Shown here piece by piece: positions 14,467 through 63,660 of a DNA stretch of 64,000 nt; the stretch's first letter is position 1; every line of letters begins with the position of its first letter. The notes under the pieces were generated by a model that was not told the DNA's origin, made no database searches, and saw nothing but the letters and a program-made list of their open reading frames with translations. The stretch lies in assembly GCA_020773975.1 (NCBI GenBank), contig GCA_020773975.1_3638.1; one strand, written 5' to 3'. Source of the DNA: a phage. The position numbers were made by a program, and so were the translations under genes.

Positions 14467-14838
14467 TTAATTAGCCAATTCAGCATCCAACGACATTATA
14501 TACTCAGGTAGCTTTCGGATGTTCTCATACAGCACAATCTCTCCGTGTGTCAATGGCCTGATTTCTTTATCCACACCAACATTATTATGGTAATCCCAAT
14601 CGGCATCAACATGGACGAAGACCAGTGTTCCTCTATTGCCAGCCTTAGCGTCCTTTCTTACGATAATCTCTCCGTCTATTGAAGGTAGGCATCTTTTGAA
14701 GAATTTGTTTAAAAGTTTTTGTTGAATTGCTTCTGCCAAGATCATTTTGTCTTGGCTATCTACGATTCTTTTGATTTCAGAGTCGTTTACTTCAACATCA
14801 ATAAGTTGTGTTGTTGTCTGGGTTCCTTTTACTTTCAT
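14467..14838 (-). CDS. hypothetical protein
   Basis: ORF downstream of polymerase terminator. Confidence 0.4.
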   Translation of the reverse strand: MKVKGTQTTTQLIDVEVNDSEIKRIVDSQDKMILAEAIQQKLLNKFFKRCLPSIDGEIIVRKDAKAGNRGTLVFVHVDADWDYHNNVGVDKEIRPLTHGEIVLYENIRKLPEYIMSLDAELAN

Positions 14839-14856
14839 GCCACCTCTTCTTTTAAA

Positions 14857-14876
14857 AAGGTGCTTTTCAGCACCTT
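14857..14876 (-). terminator. rho-independent terminator after DNA polymerase exon 2
   Basis: AAGGTGCT-tttc-AGCACCTT hairpin followed by T-run on minus strand. Confidence 0.55.
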
Positions 14877-14883
14877 ACCATTT

Positions 14884-15183
14884 TTAGTGAGAATCTGCCC
14901 ATGTGTATCCACAAAGATATTCTCCTGTAATTAAAACTGGAAGCCCCATTATCTTAGATGCTTTTTCTACACATTTTGTTGCAAGCTCTCCTACTGGGCA
15001 ATGCAGTATCCTGTATTTCCCATACACATCAGGTTCAACAATAACTCTACCCGCTTTCACATAATGTCCGTCGAAACGATGACCTTTTTCAAGCATCATA
15101 TCTACATAGCTTTGTGCCGCCTCTAAGTTAGAATGCTCCGTTATTGATTTAAATCTTTCCGGTACTTGTACCTGTATCTCATC
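14884..15183 (-). CDS. family A DNA polymerase, exon 2 (motif C to C-terminus)
   Basis: Begins DEIQVQVPERF (HDE motif C once joined to exon 1) and ends GEYLCGYTWADSH like PolA C-termini. Confidence 0.85.
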   Translation of the reverse strand, partial: DEIQVQVPERFKSITEHSNLEAAQSYVDMMLEKGHRFDGHYVKAGRVIVEPDVYGKYRILHCPVGELATKCVEKASKIMGLPVLITGEYLCGYTWADSH

Positions 15184-15501
15184 CATCAGTTCAGAGAGTT
15201 CGTTACGCTCTCCCGCACCATTACGTGCATAGCCACAAGATTTCTCCTGTGGGTCGGACTATCTCATCCTCCTGATATTAAGGAGGCCTCCCGTTTCGAC
15301 CGCACTTGCTGGCCTACTCTACTCGCTTTCACATTACTAGTGTGCTTTCGATAGTCTCTGAACGTTCATCCCATAGGGATGCTTCGCTGCGGATTAGCAT
15401 ATTGAACTTTTGCTACTTTTACGTATAAAAGCCAGCTTAGCCTTCCCGTCAATTAGAGAGGTTTTCGACATGCATTACTGCATGAAGCCACAATGTTATT
15501 T
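15184..15501 (-). ncRNA. group I self-splicing intron (ORF-less, 318 nt) in DNA polymerase gene
   Basis: P/Q/R/S-like elements AAUUGACGGGAAGG, AAUCCGCAGC, GUUCAGAGACUA, AGAUAGUCCGACC; IGS GUGG pairs with exon end CCAU; ends in G. Confidence 0.8.
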
Positions 15502-17913
15502 ATGGTAGTAGATAACCCTCCTGACACCTTGGTCGTACCATCCCCATTTCACCAATTCCCAATGGAACAGGACTCCCATGAGGTCAAACAATGAAGCACC
15601 ACCGTTTTGTTGGTAAGCATTCAGCAGAGAATGTTTAGAACGAGTCCAAATTTTACGCCCGTCCATGCCTGGAATATAGCGTCTCCCATTTGCCTCCCAG
15701 AATTTTTCCAACCACTCCCTACGCATTTTCAACCCGAAGTTACTATCCCAGAATGCATCTATTACAGCCTGTGCTCTATTAAGGGGGATACCCAGCATTG
15801 CGGCTATCTTAGGAGCTTGTGCTCCATACATAATTCCATACGTAACCCCCTTTCCTCCAGAGCGTGTTACCTCCTTTCCTGCTGCTATTGTGTATGCTCT
15901 TGCGTTTCGTTCATGGGCATCCTCTTCCATCATGATACGTAAATACTCACCACCATCAAACTCAAAAGCCCCTGCCGCTGCAATCATACCTTCTAAGTTA
16001 GATCCATCACAACCCATCAGGTAGTAGCCTTCAGGGACTGTCCAAAGACCCCGCATTTCTTTTCCCAACAAAACCTTCGGATCAGGCTTGGGCATGTTTG
16101 CGCAAACAGTATGCTTGCACCTGCCCGTGTTAGTGATTCCAGAAAAACGTGCTGGAAGTTTTCCGTCAATGTCTAAACGAGGGTGATTTAATAACCCTGT
16201 ATCCGTCTTATCCTCATCCATTGGGTCTAAAACAGATCGCCTGTTACGAAGTGATAGCCACTTAACAATCTGTTTTGCCATATGCACATCAATTTTCTCC
16301 AAATTTGGACACAGATGCCCAAAATTATCTTTTAATTGAGGAGATGTCGGTAACTGGCGTGCTTTACGCCGAAATTTCTTAAATATCTCTGAATAACCCC
16401 TTTCAGATGCATGGCGATGGTCAAACTTACGCTCTGAAATGTTGAATTTCTCATCTGAATCATTAAGGTAGTCAAGAATAAGAGATTTATACTCAGACTC
16501 TGCCAACTCTTCTATGTACTTCTTAACTAGTACATCAATTTCAGAATCTTCACGAGTCTTTTTAAATTGATCCTTAGTAACATCTTTTACGCGCCACAGT
16601 GTAGGTTTCCAACCAGCATCTTTGATCAAATATTTTTTAATATCATCCTGATTAGAGATTTTCATTGGAACCATTAAATCTGGCATTTTTCTGTTTCGAA
16701 GGTCTTCTTTAGCCTTCTCTAGAAGATCCGGCGGTAAAGGTTCGAGTGTGTTCTCTTTGGTTCGCTGGGAACGAATGAAATCACCGTATAAAGCCGGATC
16801 TTCAATGCCATTCTGGATGCAATATCTCTCCCCTGCTGCACTTACATCCCCATTGCTCTTAAAAGCTGTTTTTGGTGGAGCTTTAAACTCCAGAGCTTCC
16901 CTGTTAACAGGATAGCCAAGTTTATATTCCAACCAATTCCACCCATGATGAGATATATTACCCGCTGTGTCAAAAGGGTTAGCTGGGAATTTTGGTTGTT
17001 GAGATTTCGTCATCTCTTTTTTTGGAAGAAGTGGTTCTACCTCTTCTTCAATTTCTCGCATCATCTTATCTATGCGATCTCTTAATTTTTCTGCCTCCTC
17101 CCGATTAAAGTATACGCCTTGTATTTCTTGCTCTATCATCAAATAGTCTGTGAGCATTCTCCTACGTAATGCATTTTTCCAATTAATCTGGTGCATCCCG
17201 TGAGGTTTATCAGTGTACATAAACTGCTTGTCATCAGGCCATCGCGTACCATTTGACTCATCAATAAGAGCTTTCCACACAAGTTCGTTAATGATAACGT
17301 CTTCCCACACACGGTTTACATATTCCCACAATGGCTGATTACGCCAATCATCAATCTGCACTTTCTTGTTTGCTACACGATAACCCCATGCCAATAAGCC
17401 GTGTGGCCCAACCCTGTCACGTTTTCCTGTTACAGGGTTCAATACAGAATCTGGGCAGCCATTAGGCAATGGGCGATCTGGGTAAAGAACACGACTCATT
17501 GAAAGAGTGTCGTAAAGATTTACCTGTTTATTACCTATCGTCCCCATACATTTTAGGTCTTTGAACATGTCATATTCAATCCCAGAAAGTTTTTTCCACA
17601 GACGTAAATCATAGCCGAACAGGTTATGTATTGCTATCCCTCTTGGCTCGGTCTGCAACCAAGAGTAAAAATCATCATAAGAAAGGATACGTAAATTAAC
17701 ACCTTCTTTGCTGCGTGCAAAATTAACTGCACTCTGGTATTCCTTGTGAGCAGGATCGAGAAACAACACCCAGTTATTTACAGCATATTCTTTAAAAAGT
17801 GTGCAGTGATATTTAGTTGCCTCTTCTAATAATCCGTCAGCTTCGTTATCTCCGACAAAAAGCCCTTTCATACTCCTCCTATTCAAGATGGGCTTGACTG
17901 TATCGTCGCCCAT
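15502..17913 (-). CDS. family A DNA polymerase, exon 1
   Basis: Motif B RSGGKGVTYGIMYGAQ; ORF runs 2 codons into the intron before a stop. Confidence 0.85.
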
Positions 17914-29607: not shown

Positions 29608-30642
29608 TCAAGACACCTCGTTAAGTTGTTCCATGTACCAACTACGGGCTTTATTTGTTGTAAATTTTGCCACGTCTTTCATAGAAAGAGAATTGGCTTC
29701 TAACACATCTGCTTCTTCTTTGTTGATATCGCGGTTAACCCATGCGATAAATGCCCCCAGAGATGCGATGTCCAATCCAATTTCTTGCAACCCTTGTCGT
29801 AAACGGTTCTCAGTAACTGCATACTCCACAAAATCTTTGATAGATTGCAGTTTCACAGGATCAACAGCAGCCAGGGTTTTCACTTTAGAAACAGAATGTT
29901 TTTGCCCTTTCACTTTAAACCAAAGTGCAGAAACATGTGCCAAGTGGCGATCTTTAGGTGTCCATACCACACCCTCACCAACACCAGATACGCCAAAATA
30001 TTTACCTACTGGACACTCTTTTTCCACACCTTCGGTAATCTGTGCAATTTCTGATTGCACTGTCTCTGGCATGTTAAAAGGAATATCCAGTTCCCACTTA
30101 CCAAAAGTTAAAATATTATAAATACGTTGTTCTGGTAATCCAATGCCAAGAATATCGTTTAAAGCTAACCATTTCCGATGGTCATTCTCTTTTCCTACTG
30201 CCACACGGAAAATAGTAAAGAAAGGCATGATTTCAGATACCGCAACACCTTTCTGGATACCTTTCCCTGCAAATTCCCCAGCGATTTCTACTGGGAACTT
30301 AAATTCAATACCACGATCTTCGCAGATCTGTTTGACTTGCTCCAACAGGCCTTTAGGGTCTTTTTCAACCATAAAGGCCATAAACCCATAATTATCTTCT
30401 TCCAGAGACAAAACGCGTTCTTTGGACTGGTATACAACCTCATTTTCAGAATTAAAGACTACACGGCAATTAGTCCCGTGAATTTTAACTGTTCCTACAT
30501 AAGGAATGAGATATTGGTCTGGAGAGGCAACCTTACGCTTTATATTGCCATTCTCATCACGACCATCATAAGTCAGACGGTCATTAACCGCTCGGATAAC
30601 ATTGCGAAATTGACTAGTGCTTGGGTACTTAGTTGCTTGCAT
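29608..30642 (-). CDS. RNA ligase, Rnl2 family
   Basis: Motif I KIHGTN; GEFAGKGIQKGV; EGVVW; FKVKGQKH. Confidence 0.8.
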   Translation of the reverse strand: MQATKYPSTSQFRNVIRAVNDRLTYDGRDENGNIKRKVASPDQYLIPYVGTVKIHGTNCRVVFNSENEVVYQSKERVLSLEEDNYGFMAFMVEKDPKGLLEQVKQICEDRGIEFKFPVEIAGEFAGKGIQKGVAVSEIMPFFTIFRVAVGKENDHRKWLALNDILGIGLPEQRIYNILTFGKWELDIPFNMPETVQSEIAQITEGVEKECPVGKYFGVSGVGEGVVWTPKDRHLAHVSALWFKVKGQKHSVSKVKTLAAVDPVKLQSIKDFVEYAVTENRLRQGLQEIGLDIASLGAFIAWVNRDINKEEADVLEANSLSMKDVAKFTTNKARSWYMEQLNEVS

Positions 30643-31015
30643 TACTATCTTCCTTATTAATAAAAGTCACACCAAGAGTTGCCTGGGCAAGAAGTTTCGT
30701 GATCTCCTGGCTCCATACAGGACTGGAGATAAAATGTTGTAATTGGAGGCTACCTAAGCGATAGGCGCTGTTCATCGTAATAGCATAGATCTCCCCATCG
30801 TGCATAATCAGACTTTCGACAACAGAAGTCCTGATATTAGAACCACTAAATCCACGCTTTTTGAGGTCATCTGCTAAGTATCCGCAGATACAACGCACAT
30901 CTTTTGTATCACCAAAACCGAAATAGGGTTCAGCACCAAACAGGATACCAGCGTATCTCTTCCCACAGACATAAGTATCTTTAGATACGCCTGTTACAGA
31001 TTTACTTTCCATCAT
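30629..31015 (-). CDS. hypothetical protein
   Basis: ORF. Confidence 0.4.
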   Translation of the reverse strand: MMESKSVTGVSKDTYVCGKRYAGILFGAEPYFGFGDTKDVRCICGYLADDLKKRGFSGSNIRTSVVESLIMHDGEIYAITMNSAYRLGSLQLQHFISSPVWSQEITKLLAQATLGVTFINKEDSNASN

Positions 31016-31171
31016 TGTCCCTCCACATCGTCAATATCTTCCATACCATCTTGCCACAGAACTTCATAGCAAGCGTCATAAATTGCGCTCATAGCATCTT
31101 TACGATCTAACACATCTACAATTTTTGGATCAATACTTTTAATTGCTTCCGCAATTTTATCGTAAGCAATA

Positions 31172-31780
31172 TCAGGATGCATGTTCTCTTTTGCCATCTG
31201 GGATCTCCTCTTCGTTTAAGACATAAATTGTCACATCACAATCATGGAGAACAGATTCTATCATAGTTTCTATGATTTTCCAATCCCCACCTGCTAGTCC
31301 AGCACCTATTTTTGGCAGCCCGATCTTATAATCAGACATAAAGCCATCTGTGTGCCTTTGCAAACAATCTCGCATTGCTGCTAAAGAATCGTAAAGGGCG
31401 TTATAATTCAGATCCCTCACACCCATTCTACGCCCATTATATCCGTATTGTGTGTACAGATTAAAACCCGCCAGCTTACCTTCGTTCATGACAGCCCAAG
31501 TATAACTGCCCAGTTTTGTTCGATCACCTTTCTCTGTCTTTAAATCTTCAGCATACATTTTTGGGAATGTATTCTTTATTTCTTTAGCAATTCCAGACCC
31601 CATGGTGCAAAATGTATTACAACCATGAGCTATCACATTAACATCCCTTTTAAGTGCTGCCTCTATTAAGCAACCAACTTTATACTTAAGCATTGTCTGA
31701 TACCTCTTCGCATTCGTATGGATAGATATCCAGTCTTTTCCCATTCCATTCGCAAGAGTAACACTCAAGAAAACTACCAT
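31172..31780 (-). CDS. macro-domain protein (ADP-ribose binding or hydrolysing)
   Basis: NVIAHGCN...GSGIAKEI and IGLPKIGAGLAGG resemble the macro-domain pocket motifs. Confidence 0.55.
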   Translation of the reverse strand: MVVFLSVTLANGMGKDWISIHTNAKRYQTMLKYKVGCLIEAALKRDVNVIAHGCNTFCTMGSGIAKEIKNTFPKMYAEDLKTEKGDRTKLGSYTWAVMNEGKLAGFNLYTQYGYNGRRMGVRDLNYNALYDSLAAMRDCLQRHTDGFMSDYKIGLPKIGAGLAGGDWKIIETMIESVLHDCDVTIYVLNEEEIPDGKREHAS

Positions 31781-39299: not shown

Positions 39300-39354
39300 A
39301 ATTTAACCACACAGGGAGGCTAACGCACGTAGTCTCCCATATGTCCCCATTTCA

Positions 39355-39378
39355 GGGACATGGGTATGTCCCTGTTTT
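39355..39378 (+). terminator. rho-independent terminator within a cluster of overlapping GGGACAT/ATGTCCC hairpins (39341-39385)
   Basis: GGGACAT-gggt-ATGTCCC followed by TGTTTTG. Confidence 0.55.
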
Positions 39379-57494: not shown

Positions 57495-57519
57495 AGCCCC
57501 GCATGGGGCTTTTATTTTT
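57495..57519. terminator. bidirectional rho-independent terminator
   Basis: AGCCCC-gcat-GGGGCT with A-run upstream and T-run downstream. Confidence 0.7.
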
Positions 57520-58258
57520 ATTCAAAATCATCAACACCGCTATCGGTAAGGTTTTCTCTGCTCGAAGGTTTTGTCGAAAGAACTTGCTCAAGCAGAGAGG
57601 AAAATTTCTGCAAATTACTTACAGAAGAAGTCCCTGCTGCCATGGCAAGCATATCCACTTCTTTTTCGGTAGGTTGCGTCCAGTCTAGAAACATCTCTTT
57701 CATGTACAACGTTGATATCCCTATTGGTGTGGCGTGGTCAACCCTATCAGTACGGACCCAGAAAAGAACTTCTTTCTCTATACATACACACAAAGCAGCA
57801 CCCAACGAGTATCCTGTAACGATGGATGGATAACTTGCAACGAGGATCTCGACATTCAGGTCATCCCAGTGAAATACAACACCCAAACACTTCATATCCA
57901 CAATGTCTTCCACTGCGGGTCTTAGCTCCTCATGGGAAGAAAGGGAGTCATAGTTAATATTCTTTATGAATTTAAGAACGTCTTGGCGGTTGTAGGCACA
58001 ATCGTTATTACCTTGCTTCCAGTAGCCCCAAAATGAAGTCGATAAATTCAACCAAAAACTTGCAGTTGTCCCTAATGTCTCAGCCAGTTTTTCAGCCACA
58101 TCTTCTGATACTTCTTCCATGTTATATAGGATAGTTCTTAACTTATTTACAGGTATACCAGATCTGTCGGCAAGATCATCCACACACCAACCTAATGGAT
58201 CCAGATATTCGTGGATAATAACCTCCCCTGGTGACACTGGTGCTCTTTCTTTCTGCAT
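57518..58258 (-). CDS. XRE/HigA-family HTH protein with extra C-terminal domain
   Basis: N-terminus PGEVIIHEYLDPLGWCVDDLADRSGIPVNKLRTI...FWLNL resembles HigA antitoxin HTH; start at internal ATG with RBS AAAGGAGAGA. Confidence 0.55.
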   Translation of the reverse strand: MQKERAPVSPGEVIIHEYLDPLGWCVDDLADRSGIPVNKLRTILYNMEEVSEDVAEKLAETLGTTASFWLNLSTSFWGYWKQGNNDCAYNRQDVLKFIKNINYDSLSSHEELRPAVEDIVDMKCLGVVFHWDDLNVEILVASYPSIVTGYSLGAALCVCIEKEVLFWVRTDRVDHATPIGISTLYMKEMFLDWTQPTEKEVDMLAMAAGTSSVSNLQKFSSLLEQVLSTKPSSRENLTDSGVDDFE

Positions 58259-58311
58259 TCTCTCTCCTTTCTCTCTACCAGAAAACCCTGCAAAGCAGGG
58301 TTTTGTTACTA

Positions 58312-58515
58312 TCAGCATTTAGGCGAGCATTTATCGCACGGGCATGAAATTCCGTGGAAACACAAACCTGTTCCGTCTTTCTTGACCCCTGTTCCACCAC
58401 ATTGGGGACAACTATCGTGTAAGCATTTTGTTTTTGTTGTCTCCTCTTTATCTTTATTAAAGAGGTTTTTCATAATCATTTTCTGTTGCTCAATCGTAAA
58501 CATTTTCGTCCCCAA
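58312..58515 (-). CDS. small Cys-rich (zinc-ribbon-like) protein
   Basis: CPQCGG...C...CPCDKCSPKC. Confidence 0.35.
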   Translation of the reverse strand: MGTKMFTIEQQKMIMKNLFNKDKEETTKTKCLHDSCPQCGGTGVKKDGTGLCFHGISCPCDKCSPKC

Positions 58516-59175: not shown

Positions 59176-60237
59176 TTAATCATTCATCTTATCCCAACAC
59201 ATTTGTTGTGCTGTCATCAAAACATCGGCAGCAAAGTTAAGATCTGTTGTTTTCGGTAAATGCGTGTTCTTGTACAGAGTGTTACGAATATAATCATCCT
59301 TCTCTTCTGCCCAAGCCAAGAGCTTCTCCAAAGACCATGCGCCATTCCTGATTGCAAGAAGCTCCTGAGCATCAGGTCTTTTTACTAAGACTTTCCCTTC
59401 CGTCAGGATTTCTTCCGCTTGACGCATCAGCCTAACCAAGTGCATACCATGCTTTGAATCGAAGCCATACTTTTCTTCTAACTCATGACGTGCTGGGTTT
59501 CTGTTTTCAACCCATGTCCAGTAGTTCTTATGCTTTTCCTTTGCTTGTTTATGCTCATCTGCCAGATATTTAACGATTAAAATTGGCTTACGTTTCTTAT
59601 CTTCGTCAGAGAACTGCTCGTATGGAACTTTACGAATAGAACCATCAGAGTTAAACAAACCAGCATTGTCGCGTGTTCCGATTACACCATAGATATTATC
59701 ACCCATGGGTAAAAAGACACACAACTTGTTAAGATCATCCAACATTTTCTGGAAGTCTTTGTGTTTTGTAAGATTATCATCCATCCACGAGTGTGTCAAG
59801 CGCATGAACTCTTTTTGTGTTGGTTGCTCTTTAGGCTGCGGGTTATTAATCCATTTATTATGGCCTTTGATACGCTTCAGTTGCGCCATCGCATACCCAG
59901 AAAAAGTAAAAGCAACTTTACTGGATAGGAGTTTTGGCGCTTGCTCGCGTAGGTACTCGTAAACATCTGAAGTTTGCAGAATGTCACTTCTATCAACAAA
60001 CATAAGCTCGATGATGTTTGGGTTCATATCAACGAACAACTTCATGTAGTTTGTTAGCTCATACAGCTTACCATCCTCTTCATCAATAAGAGTCATTTCT
60101 CTGTCAACGAAAAACGGGGTAAGAATGCTTTTAGGCTCTGCACAATAAATTCCGCGAATATCCACATCGGATGTTGGTAAGTTAGTTCCATAGGCAATGC
60201 TACCACTGTAGCAGCGCATTAGTTCTAGTTTCTTCAT
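59176..60237 (-). CDS. Pol-beta superfamily nucleotidyltransferase
   Basis: GSIAYGTNLPTSDVDIRG (GS-x9-SDxD) NTase signature. Confidence 0.5.
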   Translation of the reverse strand: MKKLELMRCYSGSIAYGTNLPTSDVDIRGIYCAEPKSILTPFFVDREMTLIDEEDGKLYELTNYMKLFVDMNPNIIELMFVDRSDILQTSDVYEYLREQAPKLLSSKVAFTFSGYAMAQLKRIKGHNKWINNPQPKEQPTQKEFMRLTHSWMDDNLTKHKDFQKMLDDLNKLCVFLPMGDNIYGVIGTRDNAGLFNSDGSIRKVPYEQFSDEDKKRKPILIVKYLADEHKQAKEKHKNYWTWVENRNPARHELEEKYGFDSKHGMHLVRLMRQAEEILTEGKVLVKRPDAQELLAIRNGAWSLEKLLAWAEEKDDYIRNTLYKNTHLPKTTDLNFAADVLMTAQQMCWDKMND

Positions 60238-60614
60238 TCTTGTACCTTTGTGCTTTTTCTTACATTATCCCAAAAATCAAGGATATTTTGGTAACGGATT
60301 TTGTCTTCCATATATTCAGCTTCATCCCGAAGATCGCACACATGTTCTATTAAGGCACACACTTCATTGTGGTATGTTGTATCACTTGTGATGTGCTTAA
60401 TCATACAAGATCCTGCTTTCCACTTTGAAAGTGAGTATCTCAGATTATCATCTTTCTCTGTTGGAAAAGCATCAACTAGCACCTTTGCCCTATTCCCTTG
60501 TATCGTTTGTATTGTTCCTTGGCGCAACTCGTTTCCACCCCAATAGATAAACACAGTATCACCAACAAATAATCTAGTTCCACTTGCGTCTCTCATTTTA
60601 TGCCTCCAACCCAA
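60234..60614 (-). CDS. hypothetical protein
   Basis: ORF, 4-nt overlap with downstream gene. Confidence 0.4.
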   Translation of the reverse strand: MGWRHKMRDASGTRLFVGDTVFIYWGGNELRQGTIQTIQGNRAKVLVDAFPTEKDDNLRYSLSKWKAGSCMIKHITSDTTYHNEVCALIEHVCDLRDEAEYMEDKIRYQNILDFWDNVRKSTKVQE

Positions 60615-61007: not shown

Positions 61008-61418
61008 TTACTCACCTTTCAGCTTAAAACTTTTCAATGTTTTGATAAAGTTTTTCTCTGCTGGTGTGTAAGTGTGAACGAAACCTGTTTCTTCACAGGT
61101 GTAGGTATCATTAACCTCCATTGCGTGTGGAGGGATAAATGCACCATCAGGAACAGACTTATATTCCGGGTTGTAGATAAATTCCGGCAGTACAACAGCT
61201 ACAGCAGTCATTGCTCCGTTCAAGGCTTTCTTTTCTTCACGCCACCACGCTACTGGGTAAGTCTCTAAAGACATTGCCTGGGTAAGAAAATCTTCAAGCA
61301 CGGACTGATAACCGCCATTCAAAACAATAATGGTCTTATCTTCTTCTTTCCAGCATTTCAGCCAATGGTGTGCAGTGATCTGCTCTGGTGTATATGCTTC
61401 ACCACTATGCAAAACCAT
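61008..61418 (-). CDS. hypothetical protein
   Basis: ORF. Confidence 0.4.
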   Translation of the reverse strand: MVLHSGEAYTPEQITAHHWLKCWKEEDKTIIVLNGGYQSVLEDFLTQAMSLETYPVAWWREEKKALNGAMTAVAVVLPEFIYNPEYKSVPDGAFIPPHAMEVNDTYTCEETGFVHTYTPAEKNFIKTLKSFKLKGE

Positions 61419-61496
61419 AAGCTCTGCAATGGCGTGTGCTGATTGGATACCCGCATGGATACCGGAGATATATTGATTAACAATACATTCTTGTTT

Positions 61497-61715
61497 TCAT
61501 TTTTGTTTTTTCCTCAGAATTATTCTATCTTCACTAAAAATTTCCTGTAACCCAGCAGCAATCAGAGCAAATATTGCTACCCACCATACAACTAACAGGA
61601 GTGCCCCAACAAGCAAATCTCTACCTGTGATCTGTTGCTCAATCCTGTAGGTAAAAATAAAGAAAGCTACGGATACTAAAGCACCAACAAAGAAGTAGAT
61701 AAACACTTCAGTCAT
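61497..61715 (-). CDS. small membrane protein
   Basis: Two hydrophobic segments. Confidence 0.35.
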   Translation of the reverse strand: MTEVFIYFFVGALVSVAFFIFTYRIEQQITGRDLLVGALLLVVWWVAIFALIAAGLQEIFSEDRIILRKKQK

Positions 61716-62057: not shown

Positions 62058-63302
62058 TTAGAATAACATATCTCTGCTGATTGCTTTACGAATAGCATCA
62101 ATACGGGCTACTCGCACAGCTTCACCAATCTCTTTACCCTTCTTACCCTTTTCCAGAAGGGGTTTTGTTATAGCTTTAGAATCAACTTTTGTCATAGCGT
62201 CGTAGGCTTCCAACAAAAAATGACCTTGAAGATAAGGTTTATGTCTAAAATCACCACCTCTTCCTTTAGCATCACAATAACACGCATCTGCAAGTGTGTA
62301 AACCTTCATTTTCTGGTCAGCTTGTCCAGCAGCTTCAAATATTTTCATGATGCTTTTTGGTTTCAAACCGTTGTTACCATCTCTGGGAGAGATGGTGTGC
62401 ACTTTTGTGTGATTTTCTGCAACATATTTTGCCGTGTCACGATAGATATTATAAATCTTCAACCTTTCACACAAGGATTGGATAACATCTACCCCAGCTT
62501 TCTCATGACCATGAAGATTACCATTGTCCTTGTAAGTTATAGCTTTGCCAAAATCATGGCACAGCACAGCAAACTTGGTCAGTGGATCAGCTTCTAATTC
62601 ATCAGCAACCCGTAACGCTAGAATTGTATGGGTGTAAGCATCCCCCTCTGGGTGATGTTCTTTAGGTTGTTGCACACGACGTAGGGCTTCCAGTTCAGGA
62701 AGTTCGCCAATACGTCCCATATTGACAGCAAAAGACCTGAAATAACCACTCTTTAAGGCTTTCAACATTTCCTTCCATTTACGATAGGCGCTTATTTCTG
62801 CCAAAGAGTGTCGGTTGTCATAAGCCAGTTTAAAAGTTTCTGGATGGATATGCCATTCTTCCCCAAGCTGGGCTTTAAATCTAAACAGGCGTAGAATACG
62901 TAATGGATCTTCAATAAACGCCTCCGATGTATGACGTAATGTTTTAAGTCCTAAGTCAACCTGACCACCAAAAGGATCAATAATCTCACCACTGTCAACA
63001 TCCATCGCCATGGAGTTGATGGTAAGATCTCTACGTGCCAAATCCTCTTCCAGAGTTACATCTGGACTAAAGCATACCTCAAATCCTTTATGGCCTTCGC
63101 CTGTTTTTCTTTCTGTGCGTGCAAGAGCGTACTCTTCTTTTGTTTCTGGGTGAAGATAAACTGGAAAAGATGCGCCAACTTGTGTGAACCCTCTTTTCAG
63201 CATCTCTTCATGCGTAGCACCAACAACCACATAATCACGGTCTGATATTTCACGACCTAACAATTTATCTCTTACTGCGCCACCTACCAAGTATACCTTC
63301 AT
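62058..63302 (-). CDS. cca: tRNA nucleotidyltransferase (class II CCA-adding enzyme) with HD domain
   Basis: MKVYLVGGAVRDKLLGR...DRD head domain; FPVYLHPETKEEYALARTERK; HD motif HHPEGDAYTHT...CHDFGK; near-colinear with E. coli Cca from memory. Confidence 0.85.
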   Translation of the reverse strand: MKVYLVGGAVRDKLLGREISDRDYVVVGATHEEMLKRGFTQVGASFPVYLHPETKEEYALARTERKTGEGHKGFEVCFSPDVTLEEDLARRDLTINSMAMDVDSGEIIDPFGGQVDLGLKTLRHTSEAFIEDPLRILRLFRFKAQLGEEWHIHPETFKLAYDNRHSLAEISAYRKWKEMLKALKSGYFRSFAVNMGRIGELPELEALRRVQQPKEHHPEGDAYTHTILALRVADELEADPLTKFAVLCHDFGKAITYKDNGNLHGHEKAGVDVIQSLCERLKIYNIYRDTAKYVAENHTKVHTISPRDGNNGLKPKSIMKIFEAAGQADQKMKVYTLADACYCDAKGRGGDFRHKPYLQGHFLLEAYDAMTKVDSKAITKPLLEKGKKGKEIGEAVRVARIDAIRKAISRDMLF

Positions 63303-63571
63303 TTCTTCGCCCACGTATTCATATAATTAACAATATCTTTTACGGTTCTCTTTCCGTCCAGTGGATAAACCATGTCATCGCTCATCCCACCGTGTTTTAG
63401 CATTGCTACCAGTCTAGTATATACCTCTTTTGGTCTTTTGCAAGTTCTTTTCTTCCATTTATGACCGTCTGGGAAGTACTCCTTATCTTCAAGAGAGATA
63501 TGAAGGATGTCCCCTATAAACTCTTTAGCCTGTGTGCTGTAAAGTGGACGGTGGAATATGTAGAATTTCAT
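63299..63571 (-). CDS. hypothetical protein
   Basis: Start at internal ATG (MKFYIFHRP...); 4-nt overlap with cca start. Confidence 0.35.
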   Translation of the reverse strand: MKFYIFHRPLYSTQAKEFIGDILHISLEDKEYFPDGHKWKKRTCKRPKEVYTRLVAMLKHGGMSDDMVYPLDGKRTVKDIVNYMNTWAKK

Positions 63572-63660
63572 TGCTTGCTCCTTTGTTGTAATAACAATAT
63601 CAGTGCAAGCCACCTGTGTCAACACATAAAGAAAAACCCGCTAAAAAGCGGGTTAATCTC

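Follow-up and report, generated by a model that had tools for sequence, protein, structure and literature searches.

The window, i.e. the whole 64,000-nucleotide stretch of phage DNA analysed here, carries on its minus strand a complete open reading frame of 353 amino acids (Table 1). According to the ORF list, its product opens with MKKLELMRCYSGSIAYGTNLPTSDVDIRG and bears GSIAYGTNLPTSDVDIRG at residues 12-29 (window 60151-60204). The start codon overlaps the stop codon of the upstream gene (ATGA) and is preceded by an AAGG sequence 9 nt upstream, while the stop codon runs into the ATG of the next, small ORF. These overlaps with both adjoining genes place the nucleotidyltransferase (NTase) gene in a tightly packed minus-strand block, extending from about 64000 to 54000. 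In a promoter and terminator scan, promoter-like counts were not above those of shuffled sequence, and operon boundaries are therefore not claimed beyond a plausible promoter at 63594-63622, located after a terminator-like hairpin (63635-63654). The window DNA is 92-95% identical to that of Escherichia phage Av-05 and related Vequintavirinae, and the Av-05 ortholog Av05_0062, annotated 'nucleotidyltransferase' in RefSeq, shares 96.9% protein identity with the NTase. Regarding genome organization, the window follows Av-05 60050-102827 in collinear order and continues, beyond window ~39334-39362, with Av-05 13595-39036, an arrangement that differs from the Av-05 assembly. The Av-05 DNA polymerase region is also interrupted by three HNH endonuclease genes, all of which are missing from the window (14838-15836).

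Several genes surrounding the NTase are related to tRNA ends. About 1.8 kb upstream, the same strand encodes a class II CCA-adding enzyme; it displays Pfam PolyA_pol head, HD and RNA-binding domains, belongs to phrog_2244 and has 'multifunctional CCA addition/repair protein' as best NCBIfam match (E=3e-124). No tRNA gene was found in the window. In Av-05, all 14 tRNA genes (L002 4068-9659, outside the window) encode their own 3' CCA, so that the phage CCA enzyme serves repair rather than maturation. Between the CCA enzyme and the NTase lies a gene related to peptidyl-tRNA hydrolase 2 (PTH2). Three diverged homologs of this gene gave sub-threshold Pfam PTH2 matches (E~0.002), and a profile search against PDB sequences returned no match. 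The AlphaFold2 (AF2) model of an intact homolog (P0270, pLDDT 94.6) had Pth2/Bit1 structures as its top 11 Foldseek matches in the PDB, with E-values from 6e-5 to 6e-4 and a probability of 1.0. The copy in the window has lost one TGTAT repeat unit (5 nt) near 61480 as compared with Av-05 and is consequently frameshifted at about codon 6; the remaining ORF (ATG at 61418) is devoid of the conserved GIHAGIQSAHA motif. Av-05 and TH18 have an intact copy of 165 aa. The frameshift in the window could stem from true pseudogenization, from slippage or from an error in sequencing. The DUF7205 gene is conserved directly upstream of the NTase in 10 Vequintavirinae-type loci, and its product shows weak KOW/SH3-like hints. 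About 0.9 kb downstream of the NTase, the same gene block encodes a 266-aa protein (57518-58318, minus strand) with an N-terminal Cro/C1-type HTH; it matches phrog_1381 'plasmid antitoxin with HTH domain', and a toxin that could be its partner was not found.

No RNA ligase is present in the NTase gene block. An Rnl2-type ligase is encoded 29 kb away in the same genome, and its homologs, annotated 'RNA ligase 2/RnlB', co-occur with the NTase in Vequintavirinae genomes; the ligase is a candidate sealing partner. This ligase gene belongs to a second RNA-repair-like cluster on the minus strand (29608-31780), in which a 128-aa protein, labelled 'methyltransferase' in Av-05, has no Pfam match. Two genes upstream of the ligase, a protein with a weak macro-domain match (E=2e-4) was also observed.

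Table 1. Coordinates of the NTase gene, its domains and motifs, and related genes in the window
Feature	Position	Strand	Remarks
RlaP-family nucleotidyltransferase CDS	59176..60237	minus	353 aa + stop codon, ATG start, complete
N-terminal Pol-beta NTase domain and following helices, residues 1-131	59845..60237	minus	Pfam, alignments, AF2 strand order
G12-S13	60199-60204	minus	N-terminal domain, invariant
D24-x-D26	60160-60168	minus	N-terminal domain, invariant
D55	60073-60075	minus	N-terminal domain, invariant
Subfamily-specific alpha/beta insert, residues ~132-225	59563..59844	minus	Missing from short RlaPs; AF2
RlaP C-terminal helical domain, residues 226-353	59179..59562	minus	Homology to short RlaPs; all-helical in AF2
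Invariant motif G258-F-D260-S-K262-H263	59449-59466	minus	C-terminal domain
DUF7205 gene	60234..60614	minus	Pfam E=2.8e-32; 5' end uncertain, Av-05 annotates 363 nt
PTH2-fold (peptidyl-tRNA hydrolase 2-like) gene	61008..61500	minus	phrog_3668 'hydrolase'; frameshifted near codon 6
CCA-adding/repair enzyme, class II, HD domain	62058..63314	minus	Likely ATG start at 63302
Rnl2-type RNA ligase	29608..30642	minus	Pfam RNA_ligase PF09414, E=2e-9

The preliminary description of this locus had proposed a Pol-beta-type nucleotidyltransferase on the basis of a GS...SD-x-D signature. This signature proved to be real, the ORF and its residues 12-29 being as quoted, with support from Pfam, phrog and conservation. 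Comparison with Pfam allowed the family to be assigned: the protein matched RlaP (PF10127) with 54.2 bits against a gathering cut-off of 23 (E=2.2e-14), over a segment spanning only residues 7-123, or model positions 22-140 of 249. The match to phrog_388 'nucleotidyltransferase' (E=3.3e-79) covered residues 5-351, and that to Pfam NTP_transf_2 (17.4 bits) remained below its cut-off of 21. The NTase had no match in NCBIfam, nor in PADLOC at E<=1, and PDB sequences gave nothing at E<=10, whether searched with the protein alone or with a profile of 65 sequences. Homologs were numerous, with 3544 recovered at E<=1e-3 by a word-indexed search and 5583 relatives by an exhaustive HMMER search. Among the matches listed from a search of 5.8 billion proteins, PF10127 was present in 120 of 120 homologs. 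A scan of bacterial genomes yielded only eight close relatives, located in MAG contigs that are probably phage contigs, and did not reveal the canonical bacterial RlaP context.

An alignment of 65 homologs showed G12, S13, D24, D26 and D55 to be invariant, as were many residues of the C-terminal third. A second alignment was widened to NrdC.11 of phage T4, to four short RlaPs and to a canonical RlaP domain, for which the N-terminal half of P0258 (317 bits to Pfam) was taken. Positions G12, S13, G17, S23, D24, D26, D55, L67, P73, G258 and G299 were still invariant across these subfamilies. As judged from this conservation, the catalytic triad is D24/D26/D55. Residue E60 was rejected as third catalytic residue because it is replaced in other subfamilies (by A in P0198 and by S in NrdC.11), whereas D55 is conserved. 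The gene product is an RlaP-family Pol-beta nucleotidyltransferase with intact active-site residues.

The preliminary description had left some 280 residues unassigned. They could be attributed to the RlaP C-terminal helical domain together with an insert of about 95 residues, which has no Pfam match. This division emerged from the four short RlaPs (P0216, P0251, P0198 and P0244; 264-311 aa), whose Pfam RlaP matches reach model positions 221-234 of 249. Their alignment to the NTase is confined to two blocks, one of residues 5-146 and one of residues 224/239-344, with 39-53% identity. Over residues 224-344, identity with the C-terminal parts of P0216 and P0251 reaches 42-53%, and the Pfam matches of these two proteins extend to model positions 227-234. 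The C-terminal part of the NTase is thus the helical domain of RlaP, and an insert specific to the subfamily accounts for the ~95 residues in between. In the AF2 model built from the 65-sequence alignment (mean pLDDT 92.3), the insert displays strands at 145-150, 173-179, 182-187 and 220-224 and a helix at 159-169. The C-terminal domain carries a series of invariant arginines (R246, R250, R269, R272, R287 and R297).

Two further features were apparent among homologs. Bona fide LAGLIDADG inteins, starting with Cys and ending with HGN followed by Thr or Cys, are found in P0121 and P0136; they sit exactly within the invariant GYD|[TC]KH motif (window 59449-59466), which marks this motif as functionally critical. 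Six relatives (P0142, P0161, P0165, P0175, P0202 and P0235) are fused to a C-terminal RNase T-type DEDD 3'-5' exonuclease. This association fits a combination of 3'-end trimming and rebuilding and is equally compatible with RNA and DNA; the fusion loci (L097-L099) are short contigs, one of them with Nmad3 and NADAR neighbours. A natural tandem was also observed in P0258 (631 aa), where a canonical RlaP domain is followed by an insert-bearing 'phage-type' copy; the composition of this protein suggests a GC-rich organism.

RlaP was reportedly named by Burroughs and Aravind for its association with RNA ligases. It is the most prevalent RNA-end NTase in jumbo phages, where its distribution parallels that of RNA ligases, and phage RlaPs have been predicted to restore the nucleotides taken off by RloC-type nucleases ahead of ligation (Iyer et al. 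2021, PMC7824862). Before a December 2025 preprint (10.64898/2025.12.29.696909), neither activity nor biological role had been reported for any RlaP. That study tested only two enzymes, both from Pseudomonas (PfRlaP and PaRlaP), which add one or two NMPs onto RNA 3'-OH ends. They use any NTP as well as dATP, prefer Mn2+ or Co2+ to Mg2+, favour the 5' half of a cleaved-tRNA mimic and are inactive on DNA and on E. coli proteins. Aminoacylation of a tRNA lacking one nucleotide was partially recovered upon their action. The crystal structure of PfRlaP consists of an NTase domain and a helical domain separated by a basic cleft, the last C-terminal helix packing on two helices of the NTase domain (10.64898/2025.12.29.696909).

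The phage NTase shares with these Pseudomonas enzymes its Pfam family, the catalytic set formed by GS, DxD and a third Asp, and the combination of an NTase domain with a helical C-terminal domain in which conserved basic residues abound. The predicted restoration of lost RNA 3'-end nucleotides before repair is completed would also be common to both. However, it belongs to another subfamily, distinguished by the ~95-residue alpha/beta insert, and its gene is located outside any RtcB/RtcA operon, adjoining instead the CCA enzyme and PTH2-like genes, with Rnl2 lying 29 kb away. T4 NrdC.11, assigned to RlaP SSN cluster 5 (10.64898/2025.12.29.696909), is likewise an RlaP of a large myovirus and of comparable size (336 versus 353 aa), with the same catalytic residues and the C-domain G...K..H..R motif, but identity is 25% over about 130 N-terminal residues only and the middle regions differ. 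Its gene, for which functional data were not found in the literature, lies in the nrdC-mobD region, in a neighbourhood unlike that of the window NTase. The jumbo-phage RlaPs (PMC7824862) belong to the same family, share the predicted role of restoring nucleotides after RloC-type cleavage and before ligation, and occur in genomes that also carry RNA ligases and CCA-adding enzymes. In contrast with these phages, the window phage is a member of the Vequintavirinae with a genome of about 120-135 kb, and the jumbo homologs (for instance those of SHEFM2K and phAPEC6) are ~35% identical to its NTase, roughly 400 aa long and encoded away from RNA genes.

Gene context was surveyed by clustering neighbouring ORFs across 80 IMG/VR loci, with NTase homologs 44-97% identical, and by placing the homologs on a neighbour-joining tree. 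A CCA enzyme was found upstream of the RlaP gene in 19 loci, often with a PTH2-like gene. At 60 loci (within L032-L095), the gene order was gp32-like SSB, UvsX-like recombinase, RlaP, a 173-aa protein, UvsY-like protein and DNA helicase. The two contexts were mutually exclusive, no CCA enzyme being found within 10 kb at the 60 recombination-context loci, and one locus displayed neither; no tRNA gene was found in the 80 viral loci. The 60 recombination loci form one clade and thus represent approximately a single evolutionary event, while the CCA-linked arrangement is scattered over several deep branches. Of the two contexts, the one with a CCA enzyme has been kept more widely in this RlaP subfamily. 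In Vibrio phage D148, the homolog is 47% identical to the NTase: a CCA enzyme, a PTH2-like gene, RlaP, Thg1, Rnl1 and Pnkp are gathered there in a single 10-kb same-strand cluster, all of them verified with Pfam except the PTH2-like gene, which had no match above threshold. Rnl1 lies within 4-5 kb of the RlaP gene in D148 and at loci L064, L051 and L079.

Cleavage of tRNA is a common antiviral strategy (PrrC, RloC, PARIS, Septu and Cas12a3), and phage tRNA-repair enzymes are counter-measures to it. Membership in the RlaP family and a location among tRNA-end repair genes make it most likely that the NTase is not a signalling enzyme but an ordinary component of a tRNA-repair toolkit of the phage. 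By analogy with the characterized RlaPs, it would probably perform untemplated addition of one or two NMPs to RNA 3' ends within this toolkit. The D24, D26 and D55 side chains, together with a divalent metal (preferably Mn2+ in the characterized enzymes), would catalyse NMP transfer, joining one or two untemplated nucleotides to the 3'-OH of a damaged RNA. Nucleotides lost to a nuclease would be restored in this way, after which the CCA enzyme would rebuild the acceptor end; alternatively, once they are restored, the phage Rnl2 may reseal a cut anticodon loop. Such a toolkit would keep translation going when host nucleases damage tRNAs. Family, catalytic residues, architecture and neighbourhood are observed features, and the chemistry is carried over from homologs with which the NTase has no more than the family-level core in common. 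The tRNA substrate and the role in counter-defence or repair are suggested by gene context, and the order of genes in the early regions of large phages says little about shared function. Among the roles listed in the preliminary description, RNA 3'-end modification therefore gains support from the RlaP family and from the tRNA-repair neighbours, and that of a second-messenger enzyme was contradicted by profile and fold searches.

A narrower version of this repair reading, to which we attach a rather low probability, is that the RlaP subfamily acts mainly at the tRNA acceptor end, as part of a 'tRNA 3'-end rescue island' directed against tail-trimming immunity. Cas12a3 is known to take 2-4 nt off tRNA tails (PMC12851939). 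When trimming proceeds through the discriminator base, the CCA-adding enzyme alone cannot repair the tRNA. The class II CCA enzyme and the NTase are both template-independent members of the Pol-beta superfamily associated with tRNA 3'-end repair; however, the former is a member of an unrelated family with a PolyA_pol head and an HD domain, has a strict C-C-A specificity and is unable to replace nucleotides upstream of position 74. RlaP would then re-add position 73 in an untemplated manner, leaving C-C-A to be rebuilt by the CCA enzyme encoded next to it, and blocked aminoacyl or peptidyl ends may be cleared by the PTH2-like hydrolase.

The same chemistry could also serve the opposite aim. Tailing of host RNAs, either by MenT-like tRNA extension or as a mark for decay, would shut off host translation. 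Such a role would be in line with the little specificity of PfRlaP, which labels many E. coli RNAs with any NTP (10.64898/2025.12.29.696909), and with MenT-type NTases, which are reported to extend tRNA 3' ends and thereby to block aminoacylation (PMC11541572). We nevertheless consider it improbable: the CCA enzyme and the PTH2-fold hydrolase that neighbour the NTase both restore usable tRNA ends, RlaP is grouped in D148 with Rnl1, Pnkp and Thg1, which constitute a repair set, toxin and defence models were unmatched, and the phage itself needs host translation.

Equally doubtful is an action on DNA ends during replication or recombination, by 3' addition to intermediates or by synthesis of short DNA oligomers in the manner of HalB. 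The recombination-module context of the uncultured-phage clade hints at a link to DNA metabolism. However, the loci displaying it reduce to one clade and one event, and the window gene lies outside that context. PfRlaP did not extend any DNA (10.64898/2025.12.29.696909), and HalB, which produces protein-primed oligo-dA, is only 14% identical to the NTase, the match reflecting a generic NTase-plus-helical fold. As for the exonuclease fusions, the RNase T family also comprises enzymes that trim tRNA 3' ends.

Fold comparison bears on a further possibility, namely that the NTase nucleotidylylates a small molecule or a protein such as a host factor or a toxin, as do ANT/KNTase, MNT antitoxins, DrrA or GlnE. 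In a PDB copy apparently devoid of the PfRlaP crystal structure, Foldseek returned nothing at E<1e-3. The best matches were ANT(4')/KNTase (E=0.02), HalB and MNT antitoxins, over the NTase core only. ANT(3'')(9), DrrA and GlnE were also among the fold neighbours, and the C-terminal bundle has likenesses to HEPN and to the C-terminal domain of KNTase. These likenesses would suit nucleotidylylation, but ANT(4'), ANT(3'')(9) and HalB are only 11-15% identical to the NTase, at Foldseek E>=0.02 and with no profile match, and the ANT enzymes act on aminoglycosides. Identity as an aminoglycoside NTase (ANT(4')/KNTase) was rejected, a significant sequence or structure match over both domains not being found. 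Likewise, a minimal NTase (MNT) antitoxin does not agree with a 353-aa protein bearing a fused helical domain and having no HEPN gene adjacent to it. Nucleotidylylation of a small molecule or a protein is judged very unlikely.

The structure prediction and Foldseek comparison advocated in the preliminary description thus left the KNTase/ANT matches without significance, and the placement among aminoglycoside NTases that it had envisaged was not obtained. Its suggestion of a nucleotide second-messenger synthase or decoy fared no better: a cGAS/DncV-like or OAS-like enzyme acting against host immune signalling has the common Pol-beta GS...DxD signature as its sole support and is effectively excluded, since cGAS, OAS and CD-NTases were absent from both lists of fold matches, and neither the Pfam CD-NTase, Mab-21 and OAS families nor the PADLOC toxin and defence models, including cGAS/DncV-like ones, matched the NTase at E<=1. 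With neither a profile match nor a cGAS/OAS-type fold, the CD-NTase/cGAS/OAS identity was rejected.

Assignment of this protein to RlaP clears one 'unknown nucleotidyltransferase' from the Vequintavirinae, a group that includes phages under study as agents against Salmonella, E. coli O157 and Klebsiella. Both the family and the role predicted for it in phages had been published before, so that the gain lies mainly in annotation and in a sharper hypothesis. What is new is the phage subfamily bearing the insert, the observation that a CCA enzyme, and not a ligase, is consistently linked to it, and the suggestion of repair at the acceptor end. The placement also points to a testable three-gene tRNA-end module composed of the CCA enzyme, the PTH2-like hydrolase and RlaP. 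Should the acceptor-end suggestion be true, these three genes would constitute a rescue island aimed at tail-trimming immune nucleases.
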